Assembly (NCBI GenBank): GCA_030614005.1
Contig: JAUWKS010000059.1
Coordinates: 1-19,424 of the forward strand
DNA length: 19,424 bases
Source: Candidatus Heimdallarchaeota archaeon
GTDB lineage: Archaea > Asgardarchaeota > Heimdallarchaeia > JABLTI01
Direction of reading: 5' to 3'
Translations under genes and position numbers: made by a program
Notes under the pieces: generated by a model
What the model was told of the DNA's origin: nothing
Seen by the model: only the letters and a program-made list of their open reading frames with translations
Database searches by the model: none
Part shown: positions 3,135 to 19,001 of the stretch, in pieces
Numbering within the stretch: position 1 is the stretch's first letter
Layout: every line of letters begins with the position of its first letter

Positions 3135-3329
3135 CTAACATTTCTCCATTTAATGGTTAATGAGATACTTCTTCTACAAAAAAAACTTTCTTGTAGTCAA
3201 GCAATCCAACTGTTCTTCTATTTTTTGACTTTCAAGAGCAAATGGTTTATTACAGACTTCAATGTATGATTTTTATAATTCAAAAATGAATATCCATTAG
3301 AAAGATACTAGAAGAAAGTTTGATGGGAA

Positions 3330-5474
3330 TTGACAGATTATCTTTGTATTTCAGAGAAGCCAACTGCTGCAAAAAGAATAGCAACAGCTCTAGATGAAAA
3401 AGGCAAACCTAAGAAATTACCCGTTCCAAGAAATTTCGGAAAAATACCTGTTTGGGAAAGTATGAGAAAGGGTGATAGAATCGTTACTATCCCTGCTCTT
3501 GGTCATTTATATTCTACCGTTGAAGATTCTGCAGGTGGGTGGCATTATCCTGCTTTTAGTTACAAATGGACACCATCTTATCTTGCCAATGAGAAAAATA
3601 AAACTAGACCATTTATTCTTGCCTTCAAGAAATTTGGTAAAGAGATTTCAAATGTAATAATTGCTACAGATTATGATCTTGAGGGTGAGGTTATTGGTGC
3701 AACTATTGCTAAATTTGCTTGTGGTCAAGATTTAGCAAACGTTAAACGCATGAGATTTTCAACCTTAACGAAAAGCGATATAGTAAACTCATTCGAACAT
3801 CGTGATCCAACTGTAAACATCAATTTGGTTAATGCTGGTTTTGCCCGGCATGAAATCGATTGGCTTTTTGGTATAAACCTCACTCGAGCACTTACTTTGT
3901 CAATTAAGCATGCAACAGGTCGATACAAACTCATTACTACTGGCAGAGTACAAGGGCCTACTTTGCGCTTTGTTGCAGACAGAGAACGAGATATTCAAAC
4001 TTTTGTTCCAATCCCACGATGGGTTATTGATGCAAAAATAGACTTAGACGGTGATGAAATTTTTATTGAATATAACAAGAAATTTCTATCATCCCTAAAA
4101 GAAGCTGAAAAAGTGGTTGTTGAAACTGCAGGTCGTGATGGAATAGTTAAAGAAATTGGGTCCAGAAAAATAACTCAAAAACCCCCTTCTCCTTTCAATT
4201 TAGGAACTTTGCAATCTGAAGCTTACCGACATTTTGGTTACACTCCAAGTAGAACATTACGTGCTGCTGAAACATTGTATTTGAATGCGCTAATTTCTTA
4301 TCCTAGAACAAGTAGTCAACAATTTACTTCTGCAATCAATCACAGAGATATTCTAACTCAACTAACTAAAAGTGATCCATATAGAATCCGAGCAAACAAG
4401 CTCTTATCCAAAAGTAAAATACAACCAACTTTTGGCAAAAAGAAAGATCCAGCTCATCCCCCAATTCATCCAACAGGCAAAAAATTAGCCGGGAATTTAC
4501 GAAACGAAGAGAGAAATCTTTACAACTTAATTGTTTGTCGGTATTTGGCAATCTTTGGCGAACCATCAATCAAAAATGGCCTTCGATTAGATCTTGATAT
4601 TAATGGACATATTTTCTACTTTCGTGGTATGAAGGTACTCAAAAAAGGGTGGCTTGAATTTTATGCTCCTTTTGGAAGAGTTGATGAAGTTGAACTTCCA
4701 GATTTAGCTGTTGGAGATGTAGTGAAACTTGCATATATTAATCACAAACAAAGTTATACTCAACCACCAGCAAGATACAATCCTAACTCCCTTCTAAAGA
4801 AGATGGAAGAGCAAGAATTGGGAACAAAAGCTACTCGAGCAAGTACCATTGATATATTATACAATAGAGGATACATGGAAGATGAGAGCATCAATGCAAC
4901 GGATTTAGGATTCGCAGTGATAGATACTCTCGAGAAAAATTCACCTGATATTATTTCCATTGAATTAACCAGAAAACTTCAAAGGGAAATAGAAAACATT
5001 CAAACTGGAAAAAAAACTCGAGAAGCTGTTTTGATGGAATCCATAGTACAATTAAAGGATATTCTAGAAAAATTCCATAAAAGAGAGAAAATAATTGGCA
5101 TTACTTTACAAGAACAAGTTCAAAACTTGAAGCAAAGACAACGTATTCTTGGTAAATGTCCAAAGTGTAAACAGGGAGAATTAATAATTACCCGTTCAAT
5201 TCGAACGAAAAAGCGTTTTGTGGGTTGCACGGGGTTTTACAAAAAGCAATGTGATTGGAGTGCACCTATCCCACAGAAAGGTTACGCTGCACCTGCAAAG
5301 AAAAATTGTAAACATTGTGGATTCCCCATGCTTACTATTAGGAGAAAAGGAAAAAGACCATTTACTATTTGTCCAAATTGGCTAAATTGTCCAGGAACAC
5401 CTGATGAAGTCATTGATAATTACCGAAACAATAAAGCTGGAGCTTTAGATGTTTTTGTTGAGGAGGAGACATAA
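3330..5474 (+). CDS. topA: DNA topoisomerase, type IA (archaeal TopA/Topo III-like) with two C-terminal zinc ribbons
   Basis: Toprim motifs ISEKPTAAKRIA (Glu) and ATDYDLEGE (DxD). Active-site tyrosine context LISYPRTSSQ. C-terminal CPKCx(n)CTGFxxxxC and CKHCx(n)CPNWLNC zinc ribbons. TTG start is forced, since in-frame TGA at 3321-3323 lies two codons upstream. Confidence 0.9.
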   Translation: MTDYLCISEKPTAAKRIATALDEKGKPKKLPVPRNFGKIPVWESMRKGDRIVTIPALGHLYSTVEDSAGGWHYPAFSYKWTPSYLANEKNKTRPFILAFKKFGKEISNVIIATDYDLEGEVIGATIAKFACGQDLANVKRMRFSTLTKSDIVNSFEHRDPTVNINLVNAGFARHEIDWLFGINLTRALTLSIKHATGRYKLITTGRVQGPTLRFVADRERDIQTFVPIPRWVIDAKIDLDGDEIFIEYNKKFLSSLKEAEKVVVETAGRDGIVKEIGSRKITQKPPSPFNLGTLQSEAYRHFGYTPSRTLRAAETLYLNALISYPRTSSQQFTSAINHRDILTQLTKSDPYRIRANKLLSKSKIQPTFGKKKDPAHPPIHPTGKKLAGNLRNEERNLYNLIVCRYLAIFGEPSIKNGLRLDLDINGHIFYFRGMKVLKKGWLEFYAPFGRVDEVELPDLAVGDVVKLAYINHKQSYTQPPARYNPNSLLKKMEEQELGTKATRASTIDILYNRGYMEDESINATDLGFAVIDTLEKNSPDIISIELTRKLQREIENIQTGKKTREAVLMESIVQLKDILEKFHKREKIIGITLQEQVQNLKQRQRILGKCPKCKQGELIITRSIRTKKRFVGCTGFYKKQCDWSAPIPQKGYAAPAKKNCKHCGFPMLTIRRKGKRPFTICPNWLNCPGTPDEVIDNYRNNKAGALDVFVEEET

Positions 5475-5702
5475 ATGGTTAAATGCGTTGTTTGTCAATC
5501 GACCATCGAAAAAGGAGAATACTGCGATGCACATACTATAGCAAAAAATAATCTTGAGAAACGATTTAGCGATTGGCAAAAAGCGTATGAAAAAATGTCT
5601 TGGAAAGAATATCTCACTAGAATTAGTGATGATGCCGACATACCTGTTGGTGAGTGGGCAAAAGAAGTAGCAATCTATTTACTAGAACAAAATAAAAAAT
5701 AA
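5475..5702 (+). CDS. Small (75 aa) zinc-ribbon/knuckle protein, function unknown, translationally coupled to topA
   Basis: The ATG follows the topA TAA directly (5472-5477 taaatg), and GAGGAGGAG at 5461-5469 acts as an SD. N-terminal CVVCx9CDAH metal-binding pattern followed by a helical, W/E/K-rich tail. Confidence 0.55.
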   Translation: MVKCVVCQSTIEKGEYCDAHTIAKNNLEKRFSDWQKAYEKMSWKEYLTRISDDADIPVGEWAKEVAIYLLEQNKK

Positions 5703-5733
5703 TTTAAATATCATCAAAGGTTCGGGTTACAGT

Positions 5734-6693
5734 ATGAAGAAGACGACTCTTGGTTTTGGGCAAGTTCTATGGGATTTGACAGTTGAAGTAGATTATCCAT
5801 TTTTACAAGATGTGGATATTGAAAAAGGTGGACATAAGAGGGTTGAATACGAGGTTATTATTGATATAATCAAACGATTGGAAAAAACACCAGATACGAC
5901 GATTTTTAAAAACCCCGGAGGATGTGCGGCCAATATTATGTCCAATTTAGCTAAATTGGGTTCAAATGCGTCCTTTTGTGGTAAACATGGAGATGATGAA
6001 GATGGTTGGCAGTATATGCAAATCTTAAAAGAAGAAGGAGTAAAACCTATCAGTATTTTAGATAAAGAAAAAGCAACCGGACAACTCTTTTCCCTTATCA
6101 CACCAGATAAGGATCGAACATTTATTGTTCATTGGGGAGCTTCCGAAACTTTGCTTGCAGATTCGGTTAGTGAAAAAATTATCAGCAATGCAGATATAAG
6201 CCATCTTGAAGGGTACCTAGTAATTAACTCACAAGATGTTTTATGGAAGATTTTCGAGAATGCTCAAAAAACAACCTTCGATCTTGCAGCACATTCCGTT
6301 ATTGAACAAACATTACCCACACTCCAAAAAATGATGAAGAAGTATCCCCCATACATCTTATTTGCTAATCAATTTGAAGGAAAAGCGTTCACAAAGCTAG
6401 AAGAGCCCGAAGAGGTTCTTGATAAGATGTTGGAATTTTCTGAAAATGCAGTATTAACACTCGGGGAGAATGGAACACTCGTGAAAACAGCTTCTGGTGA
6501 AGAACATTTCCAAGAAGCAATACCGACAACTGTTATTGATACAACAGGAGCAGGAGATGCATTTATTGCCGGATTCCTTCATGAGTTTTTGAAAGATGGA
6601 GATATTCAAAAAGCAGCTAAACTTGGAACACAGGCTGCTAGCTGCACTATCAAAGAAATGGGTGCACGATCATTTCAGAAAGAGAGACTATAA
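5734..6693 (+). CDS. PfkB-family carbohydrate/nucleoside kinase (ribokinase/adenosine-kinase-like)
   Basis: 319-aa ORF. N-terminal GGCAANIMSNLAKLGSNASFCGKHGDDEDG (first PfkB signature region) and C-terminal DTTGAGDAFIAGFL (second PfkB signature with the catalytic Asp). Confidence 0.8.
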   Translation: MKKTTLGFGQVLWDLTVEVDYPFLQDVDIEKGGHKRVEYEVIIDIIKRLEKTPDTTIFKNPGGCAANIMSNLAKLGSNASFCGKHGDDEDGWQYMQILKEEGVKPISILDKEKATGQLFSLITPDKDRTFIVHWGASETLLADSVSEKIISNADISHLEGYLVINSQDVLWKIFENAQKTTFDLAAHSVIEQTLPTLQKMMKKYPPYILFANQFEGKAFTKLEEPEEVLDKMLEFSENAVLTLGENGTLVKTASGEEHFQEAIPTTVIDTTGAGDAFIAGFLHEFLKDGDIQKAAKLGTQAASCTIKEMGARSFQKERL

Positions 6694-6873
6694 CGACGAT
6701 ACAAGTTTACTTATTAATGAATCAGGTTGGGCCGAAGATGAACACTTAATCCTACTTGTTGATGTGCCTTCTACAGGAGGTAAAGCTATTCGTTATGCCA
6801 TGTATGAAGTCAAAAGCTGTACAGGTGATAATTGGTATTTCTATGAAGATAGTTCCAGCAGTGTAGATCCAGT
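6687..6873 (+). pseudogene. Orphan partial copy (about 62 codons) of the mature N-terminal region of the 7026-7715 gene; lacks start codon and signal sequence
   Basis: 187-bp direct repeat of 7126-7312 (offset 439 nt) with 9 mismatches by my alignment, about 95% identity. It reads YNDDTSLLINESGWAEDEHLILLVDVPSTGGKAIRYAMYEVKSCTGDNWYFYEDSSSSVDPV. It begins 4 nt before the kinase stop codon and is in a different frame from the kinase. Confidence 0.8.
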
Positions 6874-6963
6874 AATAAACTAACATTAATTCTCTTCTTT
6901 TTGAATAAGAATATTTACCGAGGTTGAATAAATAAATCGACAATAATTCAAAACGGAGAAATG

Positions 6964-6971
6964 TTTAAATA
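6964..6971 (+). promoter_or_regulatory. TATA box candidate (tttaaata) for the 7026 gene
   Basis: Matches the archaeal TTTAWATA consensus with a purine-rich BRE-like ggagaaa just upstream. It lies about 55 nt before the ATG at 7026, which is itself preceded by the SD-like aaaagga. Confidence 0.4.
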
Positions 6972-7025
6972 TCTTTTTGAACTGTTTTTTTTTCAAGTAA
7001 TTATTTCTCGAAAAGGAATAATTTA

Positions 7026-7715
7026 ATGGAATGTTTTAATTTGAGAGAAAAGAAAAAAACAGCTAGTTTATTAGTTATTATTTCTATATTAGGAGCAGGA
7101 TTAATCATTAATTCTTCCAACGCTTACTATAACGACGATACAAGTTTACTTATTAATGGATCAGGTTGGGCTCAAGATGAACACTTAATCCTACTTGTTG
7201 ATGTGCCTTCTACTGGAGGTAAAGCTATTCGTTATGCCATGTATGAAGTCATAACTTGTACAGGCGATAATTGGTATTTCTATGAAGATAGTTCCAGTAG
7301 TGTAGATCCAGTTTATCTTCATCTTAATTGGTATGATTATATTATTATTGTAGGTTCAGATTCAAGCAACAATGGTAATATGGATGAATTTTCTTTAACT
7401 ATGACAGTATATGACAGTGGTTCTAGTTATTCTACATACAAGTCATATAATTTTGGAGACAGTGCAGGAAATGATTTCTACGTAGGAATATGGCAGTTTC
7501 AAGATTGTGGACAATTGAAATTTGGTAATAGTGGAAAAGTTGTTGCTAAATGGGAAGATGATGGAGATCATGGTGCAACTTGGCCAGGTGTATTTACAGA
7601 TTCGGATTGGTCAGGGATATGGGGTTATTTGGACGATTATTACAATAGTGCAAATGAACATAAAATTGAAGATTTACTTGCTTATTATACATTCCCAGAT
7701 CCATATCCAAACTAA
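7026..7715 (+). CDS. Exported or N-terminally anchored protein of unknown family (D/Y/W/G/S-rich)
   Basis: 229-aa ORF. N-terminal REKKKTASLLVIISILGAGLIINSSNA is a signal peptide or signal anchor. No cytoplasmic-enzyme motifs; composition is aromatic plus acidic. Confidence 0.7.
   Translation: MECFNLREKKKTASLLVIISILGAGLIINSSNAYYNDDTSLLINGSGWAQDEHLILLVDVPSTGGKAIRYAMYEVITCTGDNWYFYEDSSSSVDPVYLHLNWYDYIIIVGSDSSNNGNMDEFSLTMTVYDSGSSYSTYKSYNFGDSAGNDFYVGIWQFQDCGQLKFGNSGKVVAKWEDDGDHGATWPGVFTDSDWSGIWGYLDDYYNSANEHKIEDLLAYYTFPDPYPN
7126..7312 (+). repeat. Expressed-gene copy of the 187-bp repeat shared with 6687-6873
   Basis: See 6687-6873. This copy starts exactly at the predicted mature N-terminus (A|YYNDD) of the 229-aa protein. 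Confidence 0.8.
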
Positions 7716-7730
7716 GGAGAAAATCTCGAA

Positions 7731-7752
7731 TTTTTTCCTTTTCTATTTTTTT
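7731..7752 (+). terminator. Oligo-T tracts after the 7026-7715 gene
   Basis: The tract ttttttccttttctattttttt lies 16 nt after the stop codon. Confidence 0.35.
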
Positions 7753-7849
7753 AAAGAGATGGATAAAATATTGAAAAATTCCGAGTTCAACAAAAAAAAT
7801 ATATGAAAAGAAAATTAATATATTTAAAGATTGAGAGGGTAATTAATTA

Positions 7850-9307
7850 ATGAAAAAATTGAAGGTTTTTATTCTAATCCTTATGATTGTGAGTTCATTT
7901 TTTATTCCATTTCATTATACCTTGTTAGCAGAAGCTGAAATGGAAGATATTAAAGAAATCATTATTACTAGTGATGAAGATATTGGTTTCTACGGGAGTA
8001 TGATCATTGATGATGAGCTTCATTTTATCTATGCCACTAATTGTAGAGATAATACAAAACTTTGTCACTATTCTATTCAAAGTGGCAAAATAAAAAAGCG
8101 TGATATTATAGATGTAGCTTTCAGTATTGGAAATGATTTTAGCTTTTCAGCTACTTCAGATCAATCATTTTATTTTACCTATAAGGTTTCAACAAAGAAT
8201 GAAACTACAGACTTATACACTCATGAATATTATTGTTATTATTTTGATGCTCTAACGAATAAAGGAGAGAAAATCCATTTATTAGATGTTACTAAATATT
8301 TTTCCCTTGATAATTCTAATCCTGATGTCTTGGGTGTAGAATTAGTAAATAATAAAACGATCTTTTTAATAGATAGCATCACATACACTCAAAGTACCAC
8401 TGATATTATAGCAATAAATCTTGAACAAAATATTGAAACTACTCATACATATATTGAATCAGGAAGATTGGAACATATTTCATCATGTTATAATACTAAT
8501 AACGATTGTGCATATTTTATTTATTATGAATGCAATTCTGATGGTAATGATTTCCGGTTATACAAGTACAATTTCACCTCTTGTTCACTAACTTTTTCTG
8601 CTAATTGCTCCTTCTCACATCTAGATTTTCTCACACGAGCAGGTAAACTTCTTTATGATCAAGTAACTGACAGTAAATATTTTATTTGCCCTTTGGATTA
8701 TGCTGGATCTGATAGTACTACAGAGTTTGCTCTATTTGAGTATAATTCAACAGCATCAACCTTTAACTTATCAAGTATAACTGATGATGCATTCGCAACT
8801 TTTTCTACGAAAACAGGAGTTGGATTTGAAACTGAAAATGAATATTATAATGCTATTATCAATAATTCATTATTATCGATTATTTATCGCAAATCCGTAG
8901 CACATTCAGACTTAAATCAATTAGCACTTATTACCTACCCCTTAGACGATAGTGAAGATTGGAATTATGTTAATCTTAATCTTGGTGATAATATCAATCC
9001 TTTCCATTCGAGGTTTATTTATGATGCCACTTCTAAAACTTATTGTGATTCATATCTTATAGGCTATATCTATGAAGATTCCCCCTATCATCCAATTGCT
9101 GCAGAGGGAAAGATTATCACTTCATTTGGGATTTATGGTCCATATGCTAATGATATCAGTAAACCTTATTTTATTAGAGCGATCAATTCAACCTATTATT
9201 GGTTAATAATAACCAGTTCAATCATTGTCCCTATTACTTTAGGAGGAGTAGGTTACTATTACCTTCGTCGTTATAAGCAAAAACAAAAAAACAAAGAAGA
9301 GAATTAA
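7850..9307 (+). CDS. Type-I single-pass membrane protein with a large beta-rich (possibly propeller-like) ectodomain, glycoprotein-like, unknown family
   Basis: N-terminal signal peptide MKKLKVFILILMIVSSFFIPF. C-terminal TM YYWLIITSSIIVPITLGGVGYYY followed by the basic tail LRRYKQKQKNKEEN. By my count, 8 N-x-S/T sequons and 10 Cys in the ectodomain. Aromatic beta-strand-like motifs recur (HFIYAT, FYFTYKV, YYCYYFD, AYFIYYE, FRLYKYN, KYFICP, FALFEYN, LSIIYRK). Confidence 0.7.
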   Translation: MKKLKVFILILMIVSSFFIPFHYTLLAEAEMEDIKEIIITSDEDIGFYGSMIIDDELHFIYATNCRDNTKLCHYSIQSGKIKKRDIIDVAFSIGNDFSFSATSDQSFYFTYKVSTKNETTDLYTHEYYCYYFDALTNKGEKIHLLDVTKYFSLDNSNPDVLGVELVNNKTIFLIDSITYTQSTTDIIAINLEQNIETTHTYIESGRLEHISSCYNTNNDCAYFIYYECNSDGNDFRLYKYNFTSCSLTFSANCSFSHLDFLTRAGKLLYDQVTDSKYFICPLDYAGSDSTTEFALFEYNSTASTFNLSSITDDAFATFSTKTGVGFETENEYYNAIINNSLLSIIYRKSVAHSDLNQLALITYPLDDSEDWNYVNLNLGDNINPFHSRFIYDATSKTYCDSYLIGYIYEDSPYHPIAAEGKIITSFGIYGPYANDISKPYFIRAINSTYYWLIITSSIIVPITLGGVGYYYLRRYKQKQKNKEEN

Positions 9308-9309
9308 TA

Positions 9310-12246
9310 ATGGTTAATCAAAAAAACACTTTTACAATTAAATCATTATTATATTGTGCTTATTCTTTTACATTTAGTGATAAAAAGCACTTAATATTCT
9401 CTATTCTAAGTTTTATGCTACCTTTTCTTCTATTTTTCCCAATACTTTTCATTGGTTTAAGTGTACAATCTTCTTTTTTGTTGGAATACCAATCTTTACA
9501 TCCATTAGAAGGGGATGAACAACATTCTGTAGATTACTATTTCTCTGATTCTTATCGTATAAATACATCTAATATTCCTTCCAATCTTTTAGCAGAAATT
9601 AATAGAGATGTTGATGATATTATTTTTAACTCAAATTTAGGTAATTATATTAATGGTTATTTATCTAATTGTGATGCTCAATTACAATATTATTCAGAAG
9701 GTGAAATTTCGCCTTCAAATATCTTATTTATCCAAAATGAATCCTTGATGCAAATCTCAAAATATTTTGAGAAAATAAATGATATTCCAGATTCATTCAA
9801 TGAATGTATATTAGTACAAAAAACTGATTTATCTGAATATACTAACTTTGAATATTCATACTCAATCGGAGATAATATTTCTATTTTACCTTTTGCTCAT
9901 GAAGAATCTGAATTGATTGTTAATAATACGTTCATTATTGATCCTTTGAATGTTAGTGTTACAAATATTTTCAATACAAACGATTTCCTACTTGAAGGTG
10001 TTATTAAAGAGGAAGATCTCTTCCTTTTTAATATCCTAAATTATTATTGTTATTTTATATCTGATCAACCTTTACTATTACTTTCTATAGATTATTTGAC
10101 TGCTTTCTTTCATTCCTTCCCGAAGCTTTTATCATCAGAGATTCACATTAATATTCAATTTCTCTATGATTTCTCTTCATTTAAAATAACTGATTTGAAA
10201 GAAGTTTATGATTCAGCAGAGGATTTACCCAATTTATCCGGTTTTTCATATTATCATGATCTTTCCGCCAATGTCACTCCTGAATTAGCAGACTTCATGG
10301 TTCTCTTTAAAAGAGATATTCAACAGCAATGGTTCCGTCTTTTTGCTATTGGGTTAGCATCCTTAGTATTTTCCTTGTTTATTCTTTGGCTTAGTTTTTC
10401 ATCTAATACTCTCAAGCTATCAGACATTTACGCTAATTTCATAACTCGTGGTTTCCCTCGTAGTACTATTCTCAAGATATTCACTATTTCTCGTTTTATA
10501 GAAATTAGTTTTTCTTGTTTTTTAGCGCTTATTTTGGCTGTTCCATTAACATATTTGAACCTTGGAATTATTTCAGGTATAACAAAGGCAGGTTCTCTCA
10601 CACTAAATCTGATCTCTTTTAGAGCAGTATTTGTCCCTTCATTATTGTTCTATGTAATCTTGTTTGCCTTTTCATTTGGTAATTTAGTAATTCTTGTCAG
10701 AAAAGTAGAAAAATTCTTTCCGAATCGTCTTAGTTCTTTCACAGCTGTTACTATTGGTTCAACCAAAACTCAAATGTTAATAAGTGGATTATCCGGTTTG
10801 TTCTCTCTTTTGGGTATGTCATCATTATTAATTATTAAGAACTTTTTAAATTTACAAGATATCTTAGATTCTGAAATATTATTTATTTTTGATATCTTCT
10901 TGTACATTTTCATCTCAATAGCAATTTTCTGTTTACTCTTTATTTTAATCAATTCATTATTGAAACAGATAGTTAAGTTATCCCATTCTCTCTGGAAAAA
11001 AACGTCAAAAAAATTCTCGATTATCTTACATAATCTTTCTCTTGCTTTTCAACATCACAAAAAACAGTCCTTTTTCATTGCTCTTTCGTTTCTAATCTTT
11101 ATTCAATCATTTTTAATTCCAGCTTATTTATCACAACATGCCACTTATTCTGCAAAATTTGATCTGGGTTCTGATGTATCTATTCATTTAGAAAATCCTT
11201 CCAATACTGCATCTTTACTTTCAGATATTTCACTTATTCCTTCTGTTTATTCAGCTGCAAATTATTCTCTTATCCAGTTATCGATTTTTGACATAGATTA
11301 TCAAGTATTGGTTATTTCGCAAACCTTTGGATCTACAGTATCCTATTCCAGAGATTATAATCTGAGAATTACAAAAGACGACTTAGAGGAATTCAGCGAT
11401 GCTCCGAATTCCATTCTCACTCAATCAGAAGACATATTTCTTAATAGTAGGATTGTTTATGGTTCAGAAAGTAACAGCATTATTTTAGGTTTTAACAACA
11501 TTTCAGCTGATGGTGAGCAATTCATTGAAGAGGAGTTTAAGGTTTATGACAAATATAATCTTTTTCCAATACTATTAAATGACTATCAACTTTCGTCATT
11601 TCATTTTGAAAAAAATGCTATTCCTTTTCTAGTCATGACAGAATCAGCTTTCCAGACAATTCATCAGTATAATGAAGATATTTCTATTATTTCACTAGAA
11701 GAAGCTGTTATCGTTAAACTCAAAAAACAATCAGAAATGCAAGCATTTTTACTAGCATTACAATCAACACCTTATTCAATTGTTCATACAACTTGGATGG
11801 ATGTTTATCCAGATTACTTGCCATCTTTTGCTACTAGTATCATAGCATTATCCATTGTAACAGGTATTTTTGCAGCTATTTCATTTTTCATTGTAGGAAT
11901 TGTTTTAGTACAAGATATGATCAATGCTCAACGAGAGAAGATACTTGTCTTGCGTTATCGAGGATTTTCAATTAAGACTATTTCAAGAAATTTCCTTGTT
12001 GAGTACTTGTTTGTTTTACTTTTAATTATTCCAATAAGCATAGGTGCAGGGATTGGATCTCTTGTTTTTCTTCTAAGAGTTCTAATTAAAGCTGAAAATT
12101 GGATTCTGAACGTTCCTTATTATGGTCAGTTTTCACTTTATTTGGCAATCATATTATTGGGTTTATTAGGGGTAGACATCCTCATTAGACATTTTTATCA
12201 GAAGAAATTCTTTGAGTTTCAACCATCAATTATGGAGGGTACATGA
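9310..12246 (+). CDS. ABC transporter permease, tandem FtsX/MacB-type (about 10 TM, 4+2+4) with two large extracytoplasmic domains
   Basis: 978-aa ORF starting 2 nt after the previous stop. The C-terminal module carries the canonical FtsX loop motif QREKILVLRYRGFSIKTISRNFLVEYL (about aa 875-900) between TM helices. The N-terminal module has a degenerate counterpart, YANFITRGFPRSTILKIF (about aa 373-390). The non-hydrophobic stretches of about 285 aa and about 235 aa after TM1 and TM7 fit MacB-like periplasmic domains. Confidence 0.75.
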   Translation: MVNQKNTFTIKSLLYCAYSFTFSDKKHLIFSILSFMLPFLLFFPILFIGLSVQSSFLLEYQSLHPLEGDEQHSVDYYFSDSYRINTSNIPSNLLAEINRDVDDIIFNSNLGNYINGYLSNCDAQLQYYSEGEISPSNILFIQNESLMQISKYFEKINDIPDSFNECILVQKTDLSEYTNFEYSYSIGDNISILPFAHEESELIVNNTFIIDPLNVSVTNIFNTNDFLLEGVIKEEDLFLFNILNYYCYFISDQPLLLLSIDYLTAFFHSFPKLLSSEIHINIQFLYDFSSFKITDLKEVYDSAEDLPNLSGFSYYHDLSANVTPELADFMVLFKRDIQQQWFRLFAIGLASLVFSLFILWLSFSSNTLKLSDIYANFITRGFPRSTILKIFTISRFIEISFSCFLALILAVPLTYLNLGIISGITKAGSLTLNLISFRAVFVPSLLFYVILFAFSFGNLVILVRKVEKFFPNRLSSFTAVTIGSTKTQMLISGLSGLFSLLGMSSLLIIKNFLNLQDILDSEILFIFDIFLYIFISIAIFCLLFILINSLLKQIVKLSHSLWKKTSKKFSIILHNLSLAFQHHKKQSFFIALSFLIFIQSFLIPAYLSQHATYSAKFDLGSDVSIHLENPSNTASLLSDISLIPSVYSAANYSLIQLSIFDIDYQVLVISQTFGSTVSYSRDYNLRITKDDLEEFSDAPNSILTQSEDIFLNSRIVYGSESNSIILGFNNISADGEQFIEEEFKVYDKYNLFPILLNDYQLSSFHFEKNAIPFLVMTESAFQTIHQYNEDISIISLEEAVIVKLKKQSEMQAFLLALQSTPYSIVHTTWMDVYPDYLPSFATSIIALSIVTGIFAAISFFIVGIVLVQDMINAQREKILVLRYRGFSIKTISRNFLVEYLFVLLLIIPISIGAGIGSLVFLLRVLIKAENWILNVPYYGQFSLYLAIILLGLLGVDILIRHFYQKKFFEFQPSIMEGT

Positions 12247-13937
12247 TGATTAATCTTGAGGCAATAACTAAAATCTATCCTAATCCTGAACTAGGTCGTT
12301 CCATTGTAGCTTTAGGTGGTTGTGATTTAGATATCAAGAGTGGTAGTTTTGTTTCAATAATTGGCCCTAGTGGTGCTGGGAAATCTACTCTTATGAGAAT
12401 GATCTGTGGTTTAGAACAACCAACGAGTGGTAAAGTGAATATTTTATCGCAAGACATTGATTTAATGTCAAAGAAAGAATTATATGATTTCCGTTTGCAG
12501 AATATTGGATTTCTTAATCAAATACCACACTATAATCTCTTTCCGGAACTTACTGTTGAACGGAATTTAATGGTACCAACTAGGCTTTTAGGTAAGAGCT
12601 TAGAAGAATCAAAAAAACAAGTTGATGAAATGCTAGAGAAAATGGAAATCAAACATCTCGCTCTCAGAAGAGCAAAACAACTTTCAATGGGAGAAAGTAT
12701 GCGAGTTGGTTTAGCAATTTCTCTCATCAACTCTCCTCCAATACTATTAGCTGATGAGCCTACTGGTCAACTCGATAAAAAGAACACAAAAATCATCTTG
12801 GATCTACTTAGAAAAATAAATCAAGAGGAAAAAACTACCATTGTTGTTGTCAGCCATGACTCTAACTACTTTTCAGTGGTCTCTGAATCTTTTCTTATTT
12901 TCAATGGAAGATTAGGAGCTATTTATGCTCAAGAAGATTTTCCAGAGGAAAGTGAAGGTGAGGATAAACCTATTACTTCTGAGACTTTTGTTTCTCATAT
13001 TGATAGTTATTCTTACTTATTCCTACCAAACCAAATCAAAGAACTTTTATCATTAAACAAGAAAGTCAAATTTGTTGTAAATCACGAATCAAAGAAGATC
13101 TATCTTGAGAACCCCGAATCACCGGAAAGCTTTTCAGGAAAAGAAATTTCCCAACAGGTGGAAATTCCACGATATCAACCAAGAAAACGAGACAAAAAAG
13201 AGAGGAGTATTTTAGAATGCACAGATTTGACAAAATTCTATTATTCACCCAGAAAAGAACTTATCTTACAGAACTTAAATCTACAAATATATCCTGGAGA
13301 ATTAGTGTTTCTAATTGGTCCATCTGGCACAGGGAAAACAACATTATTGAATCTTGTATCAGGGATTGATAGGGATTTTACTGGTTCAATAAGAATTCTA
13401 GATAAAGAAATCCTCTCATCTAATTTTACAGCAATTGATAAACTGCGATCCCAATCAGTCTACTACTCCTCACAATATATCAACCTCTATCCCTCTATGA
13501 CCCTAATCGAAAACATAAATTATTTTATCGCAAATAAAAAAAGTGAACAGAGTTTTTATGATACAGAGTATCTATTGCAACATCTCTCGTTGGATAATAT
13601 TAAAAATCAGTTAGTAGAAAACTATTCACAAGGAGAAAAGAAAAGAGCAACAATACTTCTGGGATTATTATTATCACCGAGAATTATGCTTATTGATGAG
13701 CCTACTGCCAACTTGGATGAATTGAACAAGCGCAAAATAATCAGTCTTTTTGTAGAGTATGTTATGGGTACTAATGCTTCAGTTCTTGCAGTGACACATG
13801 ATTTACTCTCAATAGTTTCAAATAGCAGGATTCTTGAAATTGAGGATAATAAGATAAGCAGGGATATGATAGCAACAACAGAGTTCTGCAATAAATTGAA
13901 AGAACAATACCTTAGTAAGAAGGATGTTAAGGATTAA
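12243..13937 (+). CDS. ABC transporter ATPase with two fused nucleotide-binding domains (LolD/MacB/FtsE-like) joined by a linker of about 100 aa
   Basis: ATGA overlap with the permease stop; GGAGGG SD at 12235-12240. NBD1: Walker A GPSGAGKST (aa 41-49), Q-loop FLNQ, signature LSMGE (147-151), Walker B ILLADEPT, H-loop VSHD. NBD2: Walker A GPSGTGKTT (aa 359-367), signature YSQGE (461-465), Walker B IMLIDEPT, H-loop VTHD. Confidence 0.85.
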   Translation: MMINLEAITKIYPNPELGRSIVALGGCDLDIKSGSFVSIIGPSGAGKSTLMRMICGLEQPTSGKVNILSQDIDLMSKKELYDFRLQNIGFLNQIPHYNLFPELTVERNLMVPTRLLGKSLEESKKQVDEMLEKMEIKHLALRRAKQLSMGESMRVGLAISLINSPPILLADEPTGQLDKKNTKIILDLLRKINQEEKTTIVVVSHDSNYFSVVSESFLIFNGRLGAIYAQEDFPEESEGEDKPITSETFVSHIDSYSYLFLPNQIKELLSLNKKVKFVVNHESKKIYLENPESPESFSGKEISQQVEIPRYQPRKRDKKERSILECTDLTKFYYSPRKELILQNLNLQIYPGELVFLIGPSGTGKTTLLNLVSGIDRDFTGSIRILDKEILSSNFTAIDKLRSQSVYYSSQYINLYPSMTLIENINYFIANKKSEQSFYDTEYLLQHLSLDNIKNQLVENYSQGEKKRATILLGLLLSPRIMLIDEPTANLDELNKRKIISLFVEYVMGTNASVLAVTHDLLSIVSNSRILEIEDNKISRDMIATTEFCNKLKEQYLSKKDVKD

Positions 13938-14001: not shown

Positions 14002-14078
14002 TGGTGGACCGGATGGAATTTGAATCCACAGCCTTCTGAATGCGAATCAGACGATCTACCAGGTTGATCTACCGGCCC
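14002..14078 (-). tRNA. tRNA-Ala (anticodon CGC) with genomically encoded 3' CCA
   Basis: The reverse complement folds as a cloverleaf: GGGCCGG-TA-GATC-AACCTGGTA-GATC-G-TCTGA-TTCGCAT-TCAGA-AGGCT-GTGGA-TTCAAAT-TCCAT-CCGGTCC-A-CCA. Stems are 7/4/5/5 bp. The G3:U70 wobble (alanine identity element) is present, and the anticodon loop TT-CGC-AT is clear. Confidence 0.9.
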
Positions 14079-14266
14079 AAATGAATATAATATGACTTGA
14101 AATCTTCTCTCTTTTGAATTTTTTCTTTTGATAGCTTTATCTAATGTTTGACAAGGACATAAATCATTTAAGCATTGCCCGTCATTTATCTACTATTAAT
14201 ATTGAACATTCGGTTAGAAATTACAGTGTTTCATCTATAACTGAAACATTGGAGTGGAGTAATAAG

Positions 14267-17200
14267 ATGTCTAAAAAAGAAGCAAAGGCTCTCAATTTAC
14301 TGCCTCGTTTATCTGCAAATGAAAAACGAGTTTTCCAAGCTTTGGTAAAGAATGGTGCTTTGACACCGATAGAAATTTCACAACGAGGTGGAGGTTCTAA
14401 AGGAAGAGTTGCCACGGCTTTAGAAACGATGGTTGAACGAGGGTTTGCTGTACCCGTGGGAAACGATGATGATCGTCGCTATATTGCGGTATTCCCTGTA
14501 ATGAAATTCACTGCTGTTTTAAGTATTTTAACTCGTTCTCTTGACGCACGCAAAAGCGAATTGGAAGCAACAACTGAAGTTGTCCACAATTTCACTGAAG
14601 GGGCAATTAAGAATGTACGAGAAGCAAGTTCGGAGGAACGTGAGAAACGAACTGAACGTTCCGAGGAAGATATTAAAGACCTCGAAATGGCTATGGATGC
14701 TTCTTTTAGTGGAATCCTTGCATCTATTGAAATGGATTTGAAAGATTTAAACCGAATATCAAAGACATCTAATGAATTTCTCGTAGAATCTTCAATCCGC
14801 ACAAAGGAAACAACGGATAACATTGAACGAGGATTAAAACCTTTAGCAAAAAATTTCTCAAAAATTCTAACTGCCGCATATGACAATGTAGAAGGTCAAC
14901 TTGAAGCTACTGTTGATGCACGAGTGAGTGACATCATTGATTTTGAAACTAAAGCCAATTCAGCATTTGATGCAGTCTTAGAAGCTTTCAATACTTCAAA
15001 GGATGAATTTGAGGACATTATTTTCACGGTACTTGATTCTGGTATTGATGATTTAGAGAGAGTTACTCGACCAATTAATGAGCAAATTGATGAAGCAATA
15101 AGCTCACTAACAGAAGCAATTGAAGAATCATCATTAAACTTCCAAACAGAGATGGTTCGTGTCTTGACTGAACAAAAACGACCAATGGTCACTGCAGTTG
15201 ATTCCATACAACCACGATTTGCTAAAGTTACTAATGCTGCTTTGGATGAGCATAAGGTAGTTATAGAACAGCAAAAACAATCTCTCTCAGGTTTAATGGA
15301 AAATCATTTTTCGATATTTAGTAAAGCCGCTGTAGAGCTGGCAAGTGATTTTGACAAAAAAATAGACATCTTAATTGAACAGTCTCTCGAAAACACTTCT
15401 TCTGCAAGTGATGAGATGAATGCTATCGAAGATGCATTTGTTAATTCGATTGAAAAAATAACAAATGAGAAAAACAAATTTATTCACAATACTTCAGAAC
15501 GGTCTCGAGATGTTCTTAACGAAATGATAGAACAATTCCTCATTATTCTGAATGGTGCTGTTGCAGAATATCAAATGGATCTCAGTGATATAATCGCAAA
15601 ACTTGAAGCTGACTTTCTAAATACTGTGGATAATAATGGTGTAAGTGTACAAAACCTCGTTAATTTCATCAATATGACCTTAACTGAACCTGTTAAGGAA
15701 CTTATGATTAACTTGGAAAAATTAAATGAACGCATCATTAAAGATGAGACAGCTTTTCTAACTAAATTTGACCAACGATTGCAGAATGAATTACAAGATA
15801 TTAATAAACAATTCAAAAAAGACACGATAAAGAAGGAAGAAAACTTTGAGAAAGATCTCAATCGTCTAAAAGAACGAATCGATAAGGATTTTTCATCAAA
15901 TCTCGATGCTCTCCAAAATAAGCTAGTAGAACAAGATAGAGCTTTCCAATCACTTTACAAAGAATTTTCCGCTAAACACCAGAAAGGATTAAGAGATACT
16001 TCAAAAGAAGTTTCCTCTTTAACTAAAAAACTTGAACGATGGAGAGGCGAAAGCACTAAAACAATTCAAGATAGAATTGAATCGAAGGTTGATAAGAACC
16101 TCGAAATATTAGAGAGTAAGATGGATAATCTAGTAGACCAAATAAAAAATAACGGTCAAGTTTCAAAAGAGGAATTAATTATACTTATTCGTGATTCATA
16201 CACACAAATTTCTAAAAATTTCAGAAGTTTTGGAGCTGAAACAAATACTAGCACCAGACGATCTCTTCAAGAAATAGCCAATATTCTCAAAAAAGATAGT
16301 CTATCAATTAACAATAGACTTGTTTCCTTTAAGAAAGAACAAGATAAATTAATTGAAGAAACAAAGTTTCCAGTTTCCAAATTACTAGTTGAACTTGGCA
16401 CTGAGTATAAGCAATTCTATAAGAAGACTGACAATAATCTTAATCGATTCTTTTCTAATGACATTGAAACCTTTAAACGTACTAGAAAAGAACTAAGCAA
16501 ATCTATCGATAGTATACTTAATCGTCAAGGCTCTCGAACTACTAAAGATAGTATAACACTGAAAGATAGTTTCATACGCGCACGAGAGAAATATGTTTCC
16601 AAAACGCAAGAGAGCTTCGAAAAAGTAGAGAAAACAATTGCTCGGGATGCATCTTCATTATTAGATCAAGAACGATCTTCTCGCTCAACTATAACAGATC
16701 TAACTGAAAAAACAATTAGTGAATTATCAAATGGTGTTAATTCAACTGCACAAACAATCCGATCCAATATTACTTCTGGAGCAGAGAGAATATTTAGGCA
16801 AGCAGCGGCTGAACTCAGTAAACAAGAAATTGAGCTTGGAGAATTAAACGAAAAACAACAAGATGAATCCATCGACATGTATAATGAAATTAACAAAATG
16901 CACAGGCAGCAACTCAAAATCCTAGATAAGAAAATCGATGCATTGCAAGAAAAACAAATAGGAAATGCCTTTGAATTTAGAGATCACTATACTCAATCAT
17001 TGAAAGAGGATTTAATAAAACAACAGGAAATCTTGAGTAATTCAAAAGAAATTATTTTCGAGCAATGTGAAAAATTGGCCGGCGATTTACAAGAGCAAAC
17101 CTCGTCAATAACTAACAGAACCATTCTGGAGCTAGAAGCCAAAACTTCTGGAATAGAAGGAGCAATATTTAGTACTGTAGGTAATATTACTGCGGAATCT

Positions 17201-17924: not shown

Positions 17925-19001
17925 GTGAATTTATTTCAGATTACTTTGTTGGATCAAGAGGAACATCCAGAACCTAATAGAGATTTGTCATCTAAACCGT
18001 TACAGATCGAAGCAGATAAGAAACAAATTCCCAAACATGTTTTCTTTCTTATAGCTTTGGCAGTTGTTATGACCTCTTTTGCTTCTATACTAATTCGCTA
18101 TGCGGGTATAGACATTGTTAGGATAGATGTAAATCTTGTACCGGCAGATGCATCAGTAATTGCTTTTTGGCGACTGCTTTTTGCTACCATAGGAATGTTT
18201 CTGGGGGCAGTTTTTACCCGAAATTTGAAGGAATTCAAAAAAGTAGAGTTAAAGAAAGATATGCCACTGTTAACTTTATCGGGACTTGCTTTAGCAATTC
18301 ATTTTGCAACCTGGAATCTTTCTTTGCAAATGACAAATGTGGCAAGTTCAATTACAATTGTGTATTTAATGCCTTTATTTGCACTCCTTCTGTCTGTAAT
18401 TTTCCTCAAAGATAAAGTATCTTGGAAACAAGCCCTTGTTGTCGTTCTGACCGTTGTAGGAGCTATTACTGTAGGATTATCTGATTTAATAACAGAAGGA
18501 CTAGGCAATCTTTACGGAGATTTATTTGCACTAGCAGGAGGAATTTCGGGCGCAGTTTATTTTGTTATCGGGAGAAAGAAAAGAGAGAGATTGGACATAT
18601 TCTCGTATGCAACAATTGTTTATGGTATTTGTACAATTTTCCTTCTAATATATGTACTATCGAATCCTGTAACAAGACCGCTTATCGTCTCAGGTCTCAG
18701 CTGGCACCATTTCCTTTTCTTTATACTGCTTGCTTTAGGACCTTCGTGTTTAGGTCACACTTTATACAATTACGGTCTAGGTTTTGTTAGAGCACCAGTA
18801 ATTGCTGTTACTTCTTTAGGTGAAATATTTGGTGCAACATTATTAGCTATACTGTTCTTCCTCGAAATCCCACATTGGTCTGCATTAATTGGTATGGCTT
18901 TTGTTGCAGCTGGTATTGTAGTTACAGTTATTTTAGAGAATAAATCTTCAAAAGAACATGCAAACAAACAAAAGAATCCATCTGAATTTGCTCAAAAATA
19001 A
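17925..19001 (+). CDS. EamA/DMT-superfamily transporter (about 10 TM)
   Basis: 358-aa ORF with two tandem 5-TM halves. Typical EamA features are present (FASILIRYA..., AFWRLLFA, ...HFATWNLSLQMTNVASSITIVYLMPLFALLLSVIFLKDK; second half GDLFALAGGISGAVYFVIGRK...LGEIFGATLLAILFFLE). GTG start; the first in-frame ATG lies inside TM1, so the true start is upstream of it. Confidence 0.8.
   Translation: MNLFQITLLDQEEHPEPNRDLSSKPLQIEADKKQIPKHVFFLIALAVVMTSFASILIRYAGIDIVRIDVNLVPADASVIAFWRLLFATIGMFLGAVFTRNLKEFKKVELKKDMPLLTLSGLALAIHFATWNLSLQMTNVASSITIVYLMPLFALLLSVIFLKDKVSWKQALVVVLTVVGAITVGLSDLITEGLGNLYGDLFALAGGISGAVYFVIGRKKRERLDIFSYATIVYGICTIFLLIYVLSNPVTRPLIVSGLSWHHFLFFILLALGPSCLGHTLYNYGLGFVRAPVIAVTSLGEIFGATLLAILFFLEIPHWSALIGMAFVAAGIVVTVILENKSSKEHANKQKNPSEFAQK

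Follow-up and report, generated by a model that had tools for sequence, protein, structure and literature searches.

Introduction

Which proteins does a type VII (MacB/FtsX-type) ABC system work with in an archaeon? To our knowledge, these systems are known almost entirely from bacteria. What sets each bacterial system apart is the envelope client that it serves (TolC pumps, lipoproteins, amidase activators, lipid II, or TesA). Heimdallarchaeia are the archaeal group closest to eukaryotes, and their cell-surface biology is almost unknown. A full-text literature search for Heimdallarchaeota with FtsX, and for archaea with MacB, FtsX, or mechanotransmission, found no description of such a system. 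In the window, which is the whole stretch of DNA that was analysed (19,424 nucleotides of a Heimdallarchaeota contig), a sequence-only reading had noted genes for two exported proteins, a tandem FtsX permease, and a fused ATPase. It proposed the exported proteins as candidate clients or partners of the ABC pair. In this study, we examined the four genes and their relatives in other loci. We give about even chances to a heimdallarchaeal type VII mechanotransmission complex with p485 as its dedicated extracytoplasmic partner.

Gene Arrangement of the Locus

All four genes described by the sequence-only reading were present on the + strand, with the same coordinates and lengths. They are listed below with the elements between and before them.

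7026..7715, + strand: p229 gene, 229 aa; secreted, signal-peptide-bearing orphan rich in D, Y, W, S, and G (open reading frame)
7850..9307, + strand: p485 gene, 485 aa; signal peptide, predicted propeller, stalk, and TM anchor (open reading frame)
9310..12246, + strand: p978 gene, 978 aa; predicted 10-TM pseudo-dimeric tandem FtsX permease with YbbP-like topology (open reading frame)
12243..13937, + strand: p564 gene, 564 aa; fused NBD-linker-NBD ATPase (open reading frame)
7716..7849, + strand: intergenic spacer between p229 and p485, 134 nt, with T-runs; possible archaeal terminator (sequence read)
7821-7828, + strand: TATA-like element TATTTAAA, 22-29 nt upstream of the p485 ATG (sequence read)
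6964..6971, + strand: TATA-box-like element TTTAAATA, candidate archaeal promoter, about 55-60 nt upstream of the p229 start codon (sequence read)

The p485 stop codon (TAA, 9305-9307) is followed by TA and then by the p978 ATG at 9310, and the p978 and p564 genes overlap by ATGA at 12243-12246. Both junctions were read directly in the sequence and bear out the translational coupling claimed for p485, p978, and p564. The junctions were equally tight in all related loci, where the genes either overlapped by 1-4 nt or were no more than 19 nt apart. The p229 gene is followed by a 134-nt spacer with T-runs and a TATA-like box, and it probably forms a transcription unit of its own, separate from p485. 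The p485-permease-ATPase genes may then be driven by their own promoter, and TTTAAATA may act as the promoter of p229. A scan for sigma-70 promoters and intrinsic terminators gave only the shuffled expectation; these models are not applicable to archaea.

Two other interpretations of the region were considered. An island integrated at the adjacent tRNA-Ala was set aside, since the tRNA and both flanks were conserved in the closest relative and no integrase was found. PADLOC gave no evidence of a defence system, as its matches consisted of generic ABC-ATPase and coiled-coil models only.

The Permease p978

The 978-aa permease had been described as a 4+2+4 TM protein with two large ectodomains, and hydropathy analysis agreed. 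Ten TM segments were found: TM1 at residues 32-50, TM2-4 at 344-463, TM5-6 at 491-547, TM7 at 589-607, and TM8-10 at 849-959. The two ectodomains are each about 250-290 aa; in size and position, they would suit the Porter/Sabre (MacB_PCD) fold.

9460..10338, + strand: permease ectodomain 1, between TM1 and TM2, residues 51-343 (hydropathy)
11131..11853, + strand: permease ectodomain 2, between TM7 and TM8, residues 608-848 (hydropathy)

The protein has 10 N-glycosylation sequons, seven of which lie within ectodomain 1.

The Pfam FtsX model (PF02687) matched p978 at residues 852-953 with 22.6 bits, below the gathering score of 25.5. The same model matched seven of the eight members of the permease family, and the orthologues P0005 (25.9) and P0006 (30.0) scored above the gathering score. 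Judged from sequence, the C-terminal half of p978 is an FtsX-type TM domain, with homology at the family level. The N-terminal half gave no direct Pfam FtsX match. Two FtsX stretches were found in P0006, in P0007, and in a 1006-aa paralogue from Ca. Heimdallarchaeum aukensis (CP084166; locus L012), whose best stretch (387-495) lies in the N-terminal half. When the two halves of p978 were aligned with each other using hhalign, they were colinear over 373 columns with an E-value of 8e-4, at a probability of only 24%, and the RGF(S/P) coupling-helix motif was aligned. The topology from hydropathy was also symmetric between the halves.

The L012 permease is homologous to p978, with 10 TM segments and an hhalign probability of 97.8% against the permease family. 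It matched FtsX in its N-terminal part and also MacB_PCD. The MacB_PCD match, in the region homologous to ectodomain 2, was weak, as its 24.3 bits did not reach the gathering score of 27. The similarity of the family to the 903-aa permease of another locus, L017, was weak (E 0.023). Only seven relatives of p978 were found, all from Asgard-type MAGs. The family profile had no match at E<=10 among all PDB sequences, and an exact-sequence look-up returned no record for the window permease or P0008. The AF2 model of p978, built on a 7-sequence alignment, reached a pLDDT of 38 and a pTM of 0.29, too low to be usable. The sequence-only reading had named recent transfer of a characterised bacterial subfamily as a ground for refutation. 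The seven Asgard-type relatives, the lack of a PDB match, and an hhalign E-value of 0.74 against YbbP speak against such an origin of the permease.

The Fused ATPase p564

Pfam identified two ABC_tran domains in p564, as expected for the NBD-linker-NBD arrangement proposed for this protein.

12243..12920, + strand: NBD1 of p564, residues about 1-226; LolD/FtsE/MJ0796 type (Pfam, NCBIfam, PDB, alignment)
12921..13217, + strand: inter-NBD linker of p564, residues about 227-325 (alignment)
13218..13937, + strand: NBD2 of p564, residues about 326-564 (Pfam, alignment)

NBD1 retains the Walker A, Q-loop, LSMGE signature, Walker B-DEPT, and H-loop motifs. NBD2 is 29% identical to NBD1 and retains the same set with a YSQGE signature. 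The catalytic motifs (Walker A, Q-loop, signature, Walker B-E, and H-loop) were found in both NBDs throughout the family, and both NBDs are apparently able to hydrolyse ATP. The top NCBIfam models for p564 were LolD, FtsE, DevA, and a bacteriocin-ABC family; the LolD score above cutoff is not equivalent to an equivalog call, as the whole-protein score adds two domains. The closest solved NBDs include MJ0796, LolD, PsdA, BceA, YtrE, and YbbA. By sequence comparison, the p564 NBDs are of the LolD/FtsE/MacB subfamily.

The inter-NBD linker contains a conserved element of about 45 aa (IDSxSYxxLPxxIK...V.F), in which D254 and P262 are invariant across the heimdallarchaeal double-NBD alignment. No Pfam model matched the linker. 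It had the appearance of an AbrB/SpoVT swapped-hairpin, an assignment without Pfam support that was kept as a lead only.

The design of two asymmetric polypeptides had been called unusual. It is not peculiar to this locus, since we found a large family in Heimdallarchaeia with the same design, in which double-NBD LolD-like ATPases are paired with permeases of about 950-1430 aa. The L012 ATPase is a homologous NBD-linker-NBD protein with 32-35% identity and the same linker motif, and the paralogue loci of the L012 type have the gene order and tight spacing of p978 and p564. In L017, two separate NBD genes stand in place of the fused ATPase. A tblastn search of L012 gave no match to p485 or p229, and no p485-sized gene was present upstream of the permease in L019 and L020. 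Some of the heimdallarchaeal paralogue loci have other exported or anchored neighbours. The paralogous systems without p485 or p229 (L012, L020) were counted against a partner role of these proteins.

The Anchored Protein p485

By hydropathy, p485 has a signal-like segment at residues 4-22, within a signal peptide of about residues 1-28, and its C-terminus consists of a short stalk, a TM segment at 450-468, and a basic cytoplasmic tail. The AF2 model was all-beta. The earlier description as a single-pass, beta-rich protein was therefore correct, with the qualification that p485 is single-pass only once the signal peptide is cleaved. The model (7-sequence alignment, pLDDT 64.6, pTM 0.69) contained 27 strands within residues 47-429, most of which formed sets of four. 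Together with Foldseek, it predicted a roughly seven-bladed beta-propeller for the ectodomain at about residues 45-430. All top Foldseek matches in the PDB were propellers, with E-values down to 2.5e-9; they included sialidases, carotenoid oxygenases, LGI1 EPTP, Kelch, and GH43 proteins, mostly at TM-scores of 0.3-0.5 and with 6-14% identity. We therefore assign the predicted propeller with moderate confidence and at the level of the fold only.

No Pfam or NCBIfam model matched p485 at E<=0.1, and the p485 profile had no match among PDB sequences. The same searches showed no recognisable catalytic motif or enzyme family. A sialidase/BNR protein or another specific propeller enzyme was not supported, as no family-specific Pfam, NCBIfam, or PDB sequence match was obtained. 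An exhaustive profile search of 1.84 billion representatives found only 10 relatives of p485. The best-conserved stretch is the C-terminal juxtamembrane and TM region, with a pairwise identity of 0.54-0.58 compared to about 0.44 elsewhere. The protein is probably N-glycosylated.

The Secreted Protein p229

The 229-aa protein has a single N-terminal hydrophobic segment at residues 12-30, followed by NSSNA, and contains 10% D, 8.7% Y, and 3.5% W. This agrees with its description as exported and D/Y/W-rich. Searches of Pfam, NCBIfam, PADLOC, and, by profile, the PDB found no relatives of p229. It had been claimed that neither exported protein belongs to a recognisable family; profile searches of Pfam, NCBIfam, and the PDB returned no family for either, and the generic propeller fold was the sole result.

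Homologues of p229 with 36-45% identity were found in L001, L008, L010, L014, L016, L017, and L018. They were present in three of the five sampled lineages in the same gene order, and p229 was absent from L002-4 and L011. In L017, the p229-like gene adjoins a different, unrelated-looking 10-TM ABC system; the 180-aa protein of that locus showed no relation to the p229 profile. These results indicate that p229 is a facultative member of the module.

Conservation and Divergence of the Module

A p485 homologue was found directly upstream of the permease gene in the window and in L014, L001/L008, L002-4, L010/L016/L018, and L011. This adjacency was kept in all five sampled lineages, even where identity fell to 26% for the permease and 42% for the ATPase. 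In L011, the permease was 26% and p485 23% identical. The order p229-p485-permease was repeated in the window and in L014, L008, L010, L016, and L018. The synteny proposed for both exported genes thus held for p485 in all five lineages, and for p229 in only three. Likewise, the proposed four-gene module was upheld for p485, p978, and p564, which are coupled and always linked, and only in part for p229, which is uncoupled and not universal. Of the three outcomes that the sequence-only reading had named as refuting it (no synteny, well-known families for the exported proteins, a recently transferred bacterial permease), none was obtained.

The p229-p485-permease-ATPase block occurred in two different genomic contexts, next to PfkB/TrmB-coil genes in the window and L014, and next to Zip/MFS/methyltransferase genes in L001, L002, and L010. 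The block therefore moved as a unit. Without a direct functional link, it would be difficult to account for the adjacency of p485 to the permease, kept despite divergence and relocation.

We compared the rates of divergence within the block. In the closest genome, the exported proteins were 38-50% identical to those of the window, compared to 85-92% for the motor. The permease, including its ectodomains, was 81-91% identical to its closest orthologue, and p485 about 50%. Such a large rate gap between the motor and the partner proteins points to diversifying pressure on the surface parts. In addition, p485 and p229 were duplicated in arrays with pseudogene remnants, and L001, L008, and L002 each have several p485 and p229 paralogues for a single permease/ATPase pair.

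With a large static interface, p485 (about 50%) and the permease (81-91%) would be expected to co-vary more. The gap is equally compatible with p485 as cargo or with contact over a small area, such as TM-TM.

Comparison with Known Systems

YbbP of the E. coli YbbAP-TesA system has 10 TM segments, with ectodomains between TM1 and TM2 and between TM7 and TM8 (PMC12646458; PDB 9GE6-9GE8), and its extracytoplasmic partner TesA is encoded beside ybbAP (PMC12646458). The tandem-FtsX 4+2+4 permease with two ectodomains, previously listed as part of a candidate novel module, is thus a known bacterial architecture (PMC12646458). Hydropathy of both proteins showed the same topology in YbbP and p978, a single 4+2+4 chain of 10 TM segments with large ectodomains after TM1 and TM7. 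In both systems, a TM5-6 linker joins two halves (duplicated FtsX-type halves in YbbP, and probably so in p978), the NBDs are LolD-like, and the gene of an extracytoplasmic partner (p485, if it is one) adjoins the transporter genes. However, no sequence similarity was detectable between YbbP and the p978 family, as hhalign gave an E-value of 0.74 for 37 columns, which lie at the equivalent coupling-helix position. YbbA is a stand-alone NBD that forms homodimers, whereas p564 has two different NBDs in one chain. TesA is a soluble SGNH hydrolase, whereas p485 is a C-terminally anchored orphan with a predicted beta-propeller. The E. coli system is bacterial and the host of p485-p978-p564 is archaeal.

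BceB of BceAB-BceS, the bacitracin-sensing system of Bacillus, is also a fused 10-TM permease with a 4+2+4 arrangement, and BceA was among the best PDB matches of the p564 NBDs. BceB has one large ectodomain, between TM7 and TM8, and the membrane-embedded partner BceS joins BceAB through TM helices, a mode that the anchored p485 may share. The partner of BceAB is a histidine kinase, whereas the p978 locus has no kinase or regulator; BceA is a separate homodimer, whereas p564 is a fused chain. Pfam and NCBIfam detected no SGNH hydrolase, kinase, or regulator domains in p229, p485, or the scanned neighbour genes.

FtsEX and LolCDE share with p978 and p564 the NBD subfamily, the FtsX-type TM domain, and, if p485 is a client, the principle of a dedicated extracytoplasmic client. 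Their permeases are 4-TM subunits that dimerise, whereas p978 is a fused 10-TM chain. The clients in FtsEX-EnvC/PcsB and LolCDE-LolA are coiled-coil amidase activators, peptidoglycan hydrolases, and lipoprotein carriers, which are tied to bacterial envelopes and absent in archaea.

Discussion

Gene linkage suggests a role of the exported proteins in mechanotransmission, as clients or as partners. The locus may represent a variant of the type VII ABC mechanotransmission systems in which an orphan propeller is the partner. The complex would consist of two polypeptides, a 10-TM pseudo-dimeric permease and a single-chain heterodimer of LolD-like NBDs. The permease would be built from an FtsX half, a 2-TM linker, and a second FtsX half, with a large ectodomain on each half. 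The membrane-anchored propeller p485 would be its dedicated partner, translated from the same tightly coupled message. As the NBD tandem closes and opens on ATP, the stalk helices (TM1/2 and TM7/8) would carry the motion to both ectodomains. These would then either reshape the docked propeller or modulate its activity, or else pass it a molecule pulled out of the outer leaflet. Such a system would parallel YbbAP-TesA and FtsEX-EnvC, with p229 as a variable secreted component of this surface machine, either an accessory or a ligand. We infer the physical complex of p485 and the permease, the direction of action (p485 as partner, not cargo), and any substrate.

If this reading is right, p485 is a concrete candidate client for an archaeal type VII system, genetically locked to its permease. 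The locus also points to a broader undescribed heimdallarchaeal family, in which the whole transporter is a pseudo-dimeric permease and a fused heterodimeric NBD protein. This two-chain design could help structural work, with a fixed stoichiometry and two ATP sites that can be mutated separately.

p485, and perhaps p229, could instead be substrates that the ABC machine extracts, releases, flips, or matures, which we regard as rather unlikely. For example, the C-terminal anchor of p485 might be pulled from the membrane, as LolCDE does with lipoproteins, with several paralogues as alternative cargos. The multiple p485 and p229 paralogues per permease/ATPase pair in L001, L008, and L002 would fit this, as would LolD as the top NBD family. 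The faster evolution of the exported proteins than of the permease ectodomains fits recognition through a small conserved element, and the conserved TM and juxtamembrane stretch of p485 could be that element. However, both proteins have ordinary Sec-type signals, so that translocation needs no dedicated exporter. Coupled translation at about 1:1 points more to subunits of a complex than to cargo, and no downstream acceptor or chaperone gene is encoded.

Unlikely, in our view, is an efflux or detoxification role, in which a pump or extractor like MacB, BceAB, or HrtBA acts on a small hydrophobic or peptide compound and the exported proteins are merely co-regulated. The core pair is widespread in Heimdallarchaeia without p485 or p229 (L012, L019, L020), the NBDs resemble BceA, PsdA, YtrE, and YbbA, and the 10-TM topology is common to BceB and YbbP. 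Against this, p485 stayed adjacent and coupled even where permease identity fell to 26% and where the block had been relocated, and Pfam and NCBIfam showed no sensor kinase, response regulator, or membrane-fusion-protein gene in the locus. A chance neighbourhood or mis-annotation of small ORFs without a functional tie to the ABC genes is very improbable; p229 is absent from L002-4 and L011 and is parted from p485 by terminator-like T-runs, but homologues of both ORFs are conserved, every lineage keeps the linkage of p485, five other loci share the p229-p485-permease order of the window, and a p229-like gene lies beside another 10-TM ABC system in L017.

A bolder reading can also be proposed, which we consider distinctly doubtful. 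The conserved ABC motor might power rapidly diversifying, cassette-like surface proteins (p485 and p229) as an Asgard-specific, ATP-driven machine for surface recognition or remodelling. Its roles could then include cell-cell or partner contact, virus evasion, or surface-ligand extraction. Diversifying selection would act on the exposed components, which segmental duplication and recombination would exchange, and the client would have no bacterial or eukaryotic counterpart.

A partial duplicate of p229 was also found in the window.

6687..6873, + strand: p229 gene remnant, partial duplicate of codons about 34-96, abutting the stop codon of the PfkB kinase gene

This remnant is a 187-nt direct repeat, 95% identical to positions 7126-7312, and it translates to the conserved LILLVDVPSTGGKA... 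segment of p229.

Organization of the four-gene locus

Four consecutive ORFs make up the module, and they lie on the forward strand where the sequence-only reading had placed them:

7026-7715, + strand: p229 gene, 229-aa ORF
7850-9307, + strand: p485 gene, 485-aa ORF
9310-12246, + strand: p978 (permease) gene, 978-aa ORF
12243-13937, + strand: p564 (ATPase) gene, 564-aa ORF

The tight junctions described earlier were found on reading the sequence: the TAA of p485 (9305-9307) is followed by two bases and the p978 ATG at 9310, and p978 and p564 share an ATGA overlap at 12243-12246. The p229-p485 spacer, 134 nt long, has T-runs and, 22-29 nt ahead of the p485 start codon, a TATTTAAA element; a TTTAAATA element lies ~55-60 nt upstream of p229. 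From these sequences we infer two transcription units, p229 by itself and p485-p978-p564 together. In the window, G+C is 27-31% over 7-12 kb versus 35-42% in the flanks, which may be a simple effect of membrane-protein composition.

The permease and ATPase resemble a type VII ABC motor

A tandem permease with two large extracytoplasmic domains had been proposed for p978, and hydropathy agrees with it. Ten TM segments were found, arranged as TM1, a 293-aa ectodomain, TM2-4, TM5-6, TM7, a 241-aa ectodomain and TM8-10. E. coli YbbP has large periplasmic domains between TM1-2 and TM7-8, and its TM5-6 join two duplicated FtsX-type halves; the p978 topology is exactly that published (PMC12646458). 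Direct comparison with YbbP gave no significant similarity, and a search of PDB sequences with the permease family profile gave no match. As for FtsX, p978 itself scored weakly, at 22.6 bits against a gathering score of 25.5. A match was found in 7 of the 8 permease family members, two of which (P0005 and P0006) exceed the gathering score, and several members have two FtsX stretches. A 1006-aa paralogue from Ca. H. aukensis is homologous to p978 across 797 columns (hhalign Prob 97.8%); its best-scoring FtsX stretch lies in the N-terminal half, and its ectodomain 2 matches MacB_PCD weakly. The two halves of p978 gave a colinear alignment (E 8e-4, low probability), in which the RGF(S/P) motif after TM2 and that after TM8 are in register. 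FtsX membership is weak from p978 alone, but family-level sequence evidence for it is adequate.

Two ABC_tran domains were found in p564. Its top NCBIfam models are LolD, FtsE, DevA and lactococcin-972-type ABC, and its best solved relatives include MJ0796, LolD, PsdA, BceA, YtrE and YbbA. Nucleotide-binding domains (NBDs) of the latter types serve FtsX-type permeases. NBD1 and NBD2 are 29% identical. Across an alignment whose members go as low as 32% identity (Ca. Heimdallarchaeum aukensis, Kariarchaeaceae), Walker A, the Q-loop glutamine, a signature of LSxGE type, Walker B including its catalytic Glu, and the H-loop His are retained in both NBDs; therefore, both ATP sites look competent. 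The inter-NBD linker (~100 residues, p564 ~227-325; 12921-13217) contains a conserved ~45-aa element, IDSxSYxxLPxxIK...V.F, with invariant D254 and P262, common to all Heimdall double-NBD ATPases sampled. The element has no Pfam match and may resemble an AbrB-like hairpin. The motor is very probably a type VII (MacB/FtsX-type) ABC system.

Two-polypeptide systems are widespread in Heimdall lineages

The ATPase search returned 705 matches at E<=1e-40. Beyond the close clade these are mainly 550-600-aa double-NBD proteins of about 33-35% identity from Heimdallarchaeaceae, Kariarchaeaceae and 'Asgard group' MAGs. In all three contexts viewed (L012, L019, L020), the double-NBD gene lies directly 3' of a gene for a 945-1434-aa multi-TM protein; one of these proteins has a clear 10-TM pattern and matches FtsX weakly. 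L012 (Ca. Heimdallarchaeum aukensis CP084166, 1905-11788) has two FtsX/MacB-like systems in tandem, the first pairing a 1426-aa permease and a 298-aa ATPase that has a single NBD, the second pairing the 1006-aa permease and a double-NBD ATPase of 595 aa. The two-polypeptide design had been called unusual; it is instead a lineage-wide theme, since double-NBD ATPases are abundant and, in the three contexts viewed, paired with multi-TM proteins. Within this wider family, p485 and p229 mark one small subfamily. No published description of these Heimdall systems was found in the literature searched.

The surface proteins p485 and p229

p485 combines a Sec-like signal sequence with a C-terminal TM helix and basic tail; of its 8 N-glycosylation sequons, several are conserved. 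Its AF2 model (pLDDT 64.6, pTM 0.69) is entirely beta: 27 strands, most of them grouped in fours, span residues 47-429. Foldseek against the PDB returned only beta-propellers, among them sialidases, carotenoid oxygenases, LGI1-EPTP, Kelch and GH43, at 6-14% identity and TM-scores mostly of 0.3-0.5. By this model, p485 is predicted to have a generic beta-propeller fold with no family attached. The family is tiny: 7 matches in a 5.8-billion-sequence index, 10 at E<=1e-3 when 1.84 billion representatives were searched exhaustively with an HMMER profile, and 3 loci among 185,579 GTDB species genomes. Its most conserved part is the TM helix/juxtamembrane region.

p229 has a signal peptide, a D/Y/W/S/G-rich composition and the conserved motifs LILLVDVPSTGGKA, IIIVxSDSN, NFGDSAG and FPxPY. 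Both exported proteins had been described as of unrecognisable family, and this held: p485 has no Pfam, NCBIfam or PDB sequence relative, and p229 no family or PDB relative. The window has a 187-nt direct repeat (6687-6873 and 7126-7312, 95% identity), whose unit at 6687-6873 is a truncated p229 gene copy (codons ~34-96) that starts where the PfkB kinase gene stops, at its stop codon. A tandem duplication probably left the 95-aa ORF at 6596-6883 as a pseudogene remnant.

Conserved gene order and rapid divergence

Conservation of the four-gene neighbourhood was borne out in part: p485 lies directly upstream of the permease in all lineages sampled, but p229 is not found in all of them.

Identity to the window and presence of p229 in related loci
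L014 (closest relative): permease 85%; p229 homologue yes
L001/L008: permease 81%; p229 homologue yes
L002-4: permease 72%; p229 homologue no
L010/L016/L018 and L005-7: permease 56%; p229 homologue in L010, L016 and L018, where upstream DNA is covered
L011: permease 26%, ATPase 42%, p485-like 23% (E 1.6e-14); p229 homologue no

Close gene junctions are kept in every lineage sampled, and the order p229-p485-permease recurs in L014, L008, L010, L016 and L018. L001 and L008 have an additional p229 copy 3' of the ATPase gene. The entire block occurs in two distinct neighbourhoods, PfkB / tRNA-Ala / TrmB-coiled-coil (window, L014) and nitroreductase / Zip / MFS / methyltransferase / RtcB (L001, L002, L010), and therefore acts as a unit. 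The L017 locus (2814-9751) has a p229-like gene (234 aa) beside a distinct 903-aa 10-TM permease, after which come two separate NBD genes, on the opposite strand; it also encodes two more small proteins (180 and 277 aa) that are exported or anchored. It may represent a relative, in unfused form, of this kind of system.

Between the window and L014, identity is 83% for PfkB, 89% for the 1237-aa protein downstream, 85% for the permease and 92% for the ATPase. Against these 83-92% for flanking and motor genes, p485 and p229 (7026-9307; L014 7224-9479) reach only 49% and 39%, an extreme contrast. The permease ectodomains are 81-83% identical to those of P0002, this same closest orthologue, and so are conserved like the rest of the protein. 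No p485 paralogue found was >54% identical to the window copy. L001 and L008 have three p485 copies and two to three p229 copies. Within these arrays lie chimeric remnants (L001 7151-8201, L008 11455-12493) of a permease 5' fragment (first 183-200 codons, 77% identity) fused to a p229-like fragment; together with the arrays, they indicate that a p229-p485-permease-5' unit was duplicated segmentally more than once. One L001 p229 fragment is 76% identical to the L010 copy, the permeases of these loci being far more divergent (the window permease is 81% identical to that of L001 and 56% to that of L010); this hints at cassette exchange. The identity contrast, duplicated copies, remnants and hint of exchange lead us to conclude that the surface proteins diversify much quicker than the motor.

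p485 as a candidate partner of the motor

Of the readings considered, the one with most support is a mechanotransmission complex of the type VII ABC class, YbbP-like, in which the NBDs would be fused and heterodimeric, the membrane-anchored propeller p485 would be a dedicated partner, and p229 would be a variable secreted accessory. That p485 would be a physical partner acted on by the permease ectodomains we hold at about even chances; the gene linkage is strong. The rate mismatch between motor and surface proteins suits a small interface, at the p485 TM helix/juxtamembrane region, and a cargo relationship equally well. Extraction or maturation of cargo by the ABC machine is a reading we consider rather doubtful. 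A conventional efflux or extractor pump whose neighbours are simply co-regulated is unlikely, and adjacency by chance highly improbable. For the mechanotransmission complex, the motor class and 10-TM topology are already known; what is new is the archaeal host, the fused asymmetric NBDs and the tie to an orphan, fast-evolving propeller family. For an archaeal type VII ABC system, in the lineage closest to eukaryotes, p485 would be a candidate client that can be tested directly.

Host and flanking genes

For all four proteins, the nearest relatives were found in MAGs that bear the labels Candidatus Heimdallarchaeota, Heimdallarchaeaceae or 'Asgard group', and in one labelled Bathyarchaeia. By these labels, the archaeal-looking context noted earlier is correct and can be refined to Heimdallarchaeia. 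The 'Candidatus Bathyarchaeia' MAG (L002-L004/L015; GCA_035528035.1, DATKZI010000058.1) has this otherwise Heimdall-restricted locus in a Heimdall-like neighbourhood, which could reflect mis-binning, mislabelling or transfer; there, a gene for an 828-aa reprolysin-like metallopeptidase is convergent with the ATPase. The module is flanked in the window by the following features:

2046-3134, minus strand: 362-aa ORF
3330-5474: topoisomerase IA with Zn ribbons
5734-6693: PfkB kinase
14002-14078, minus strand: tRNA-Ala(CGC), between the ATPase and the downstream gene
14144-17857: 1237-aa protein, N-terminal TrmB/MarR-type winged helix, then ~1100 aa coiled-coil-like
17925-19001: EamA transporter

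Regions 1-6693, which from its translations presumably also holds indolepyruvate-oxidoreductase-like fragments, and 17925-19001 are ordinary housekeeping surroundings. The coiled-coil part of the 1237-aa protein gave weak matches to apolipoprotein and ZorA coiled-coil. Its gene and that of PfkB are outside the module and conserved in L014 only. In the orthologous tRNA-Ala of L014 (~14175-14290), the anticodon loop carries 34 inserted nt, with no ARAGORN call there. The insertion looks like a canonical archaeal tRNA intron, and its presence appears to differ between the window and this close relative.
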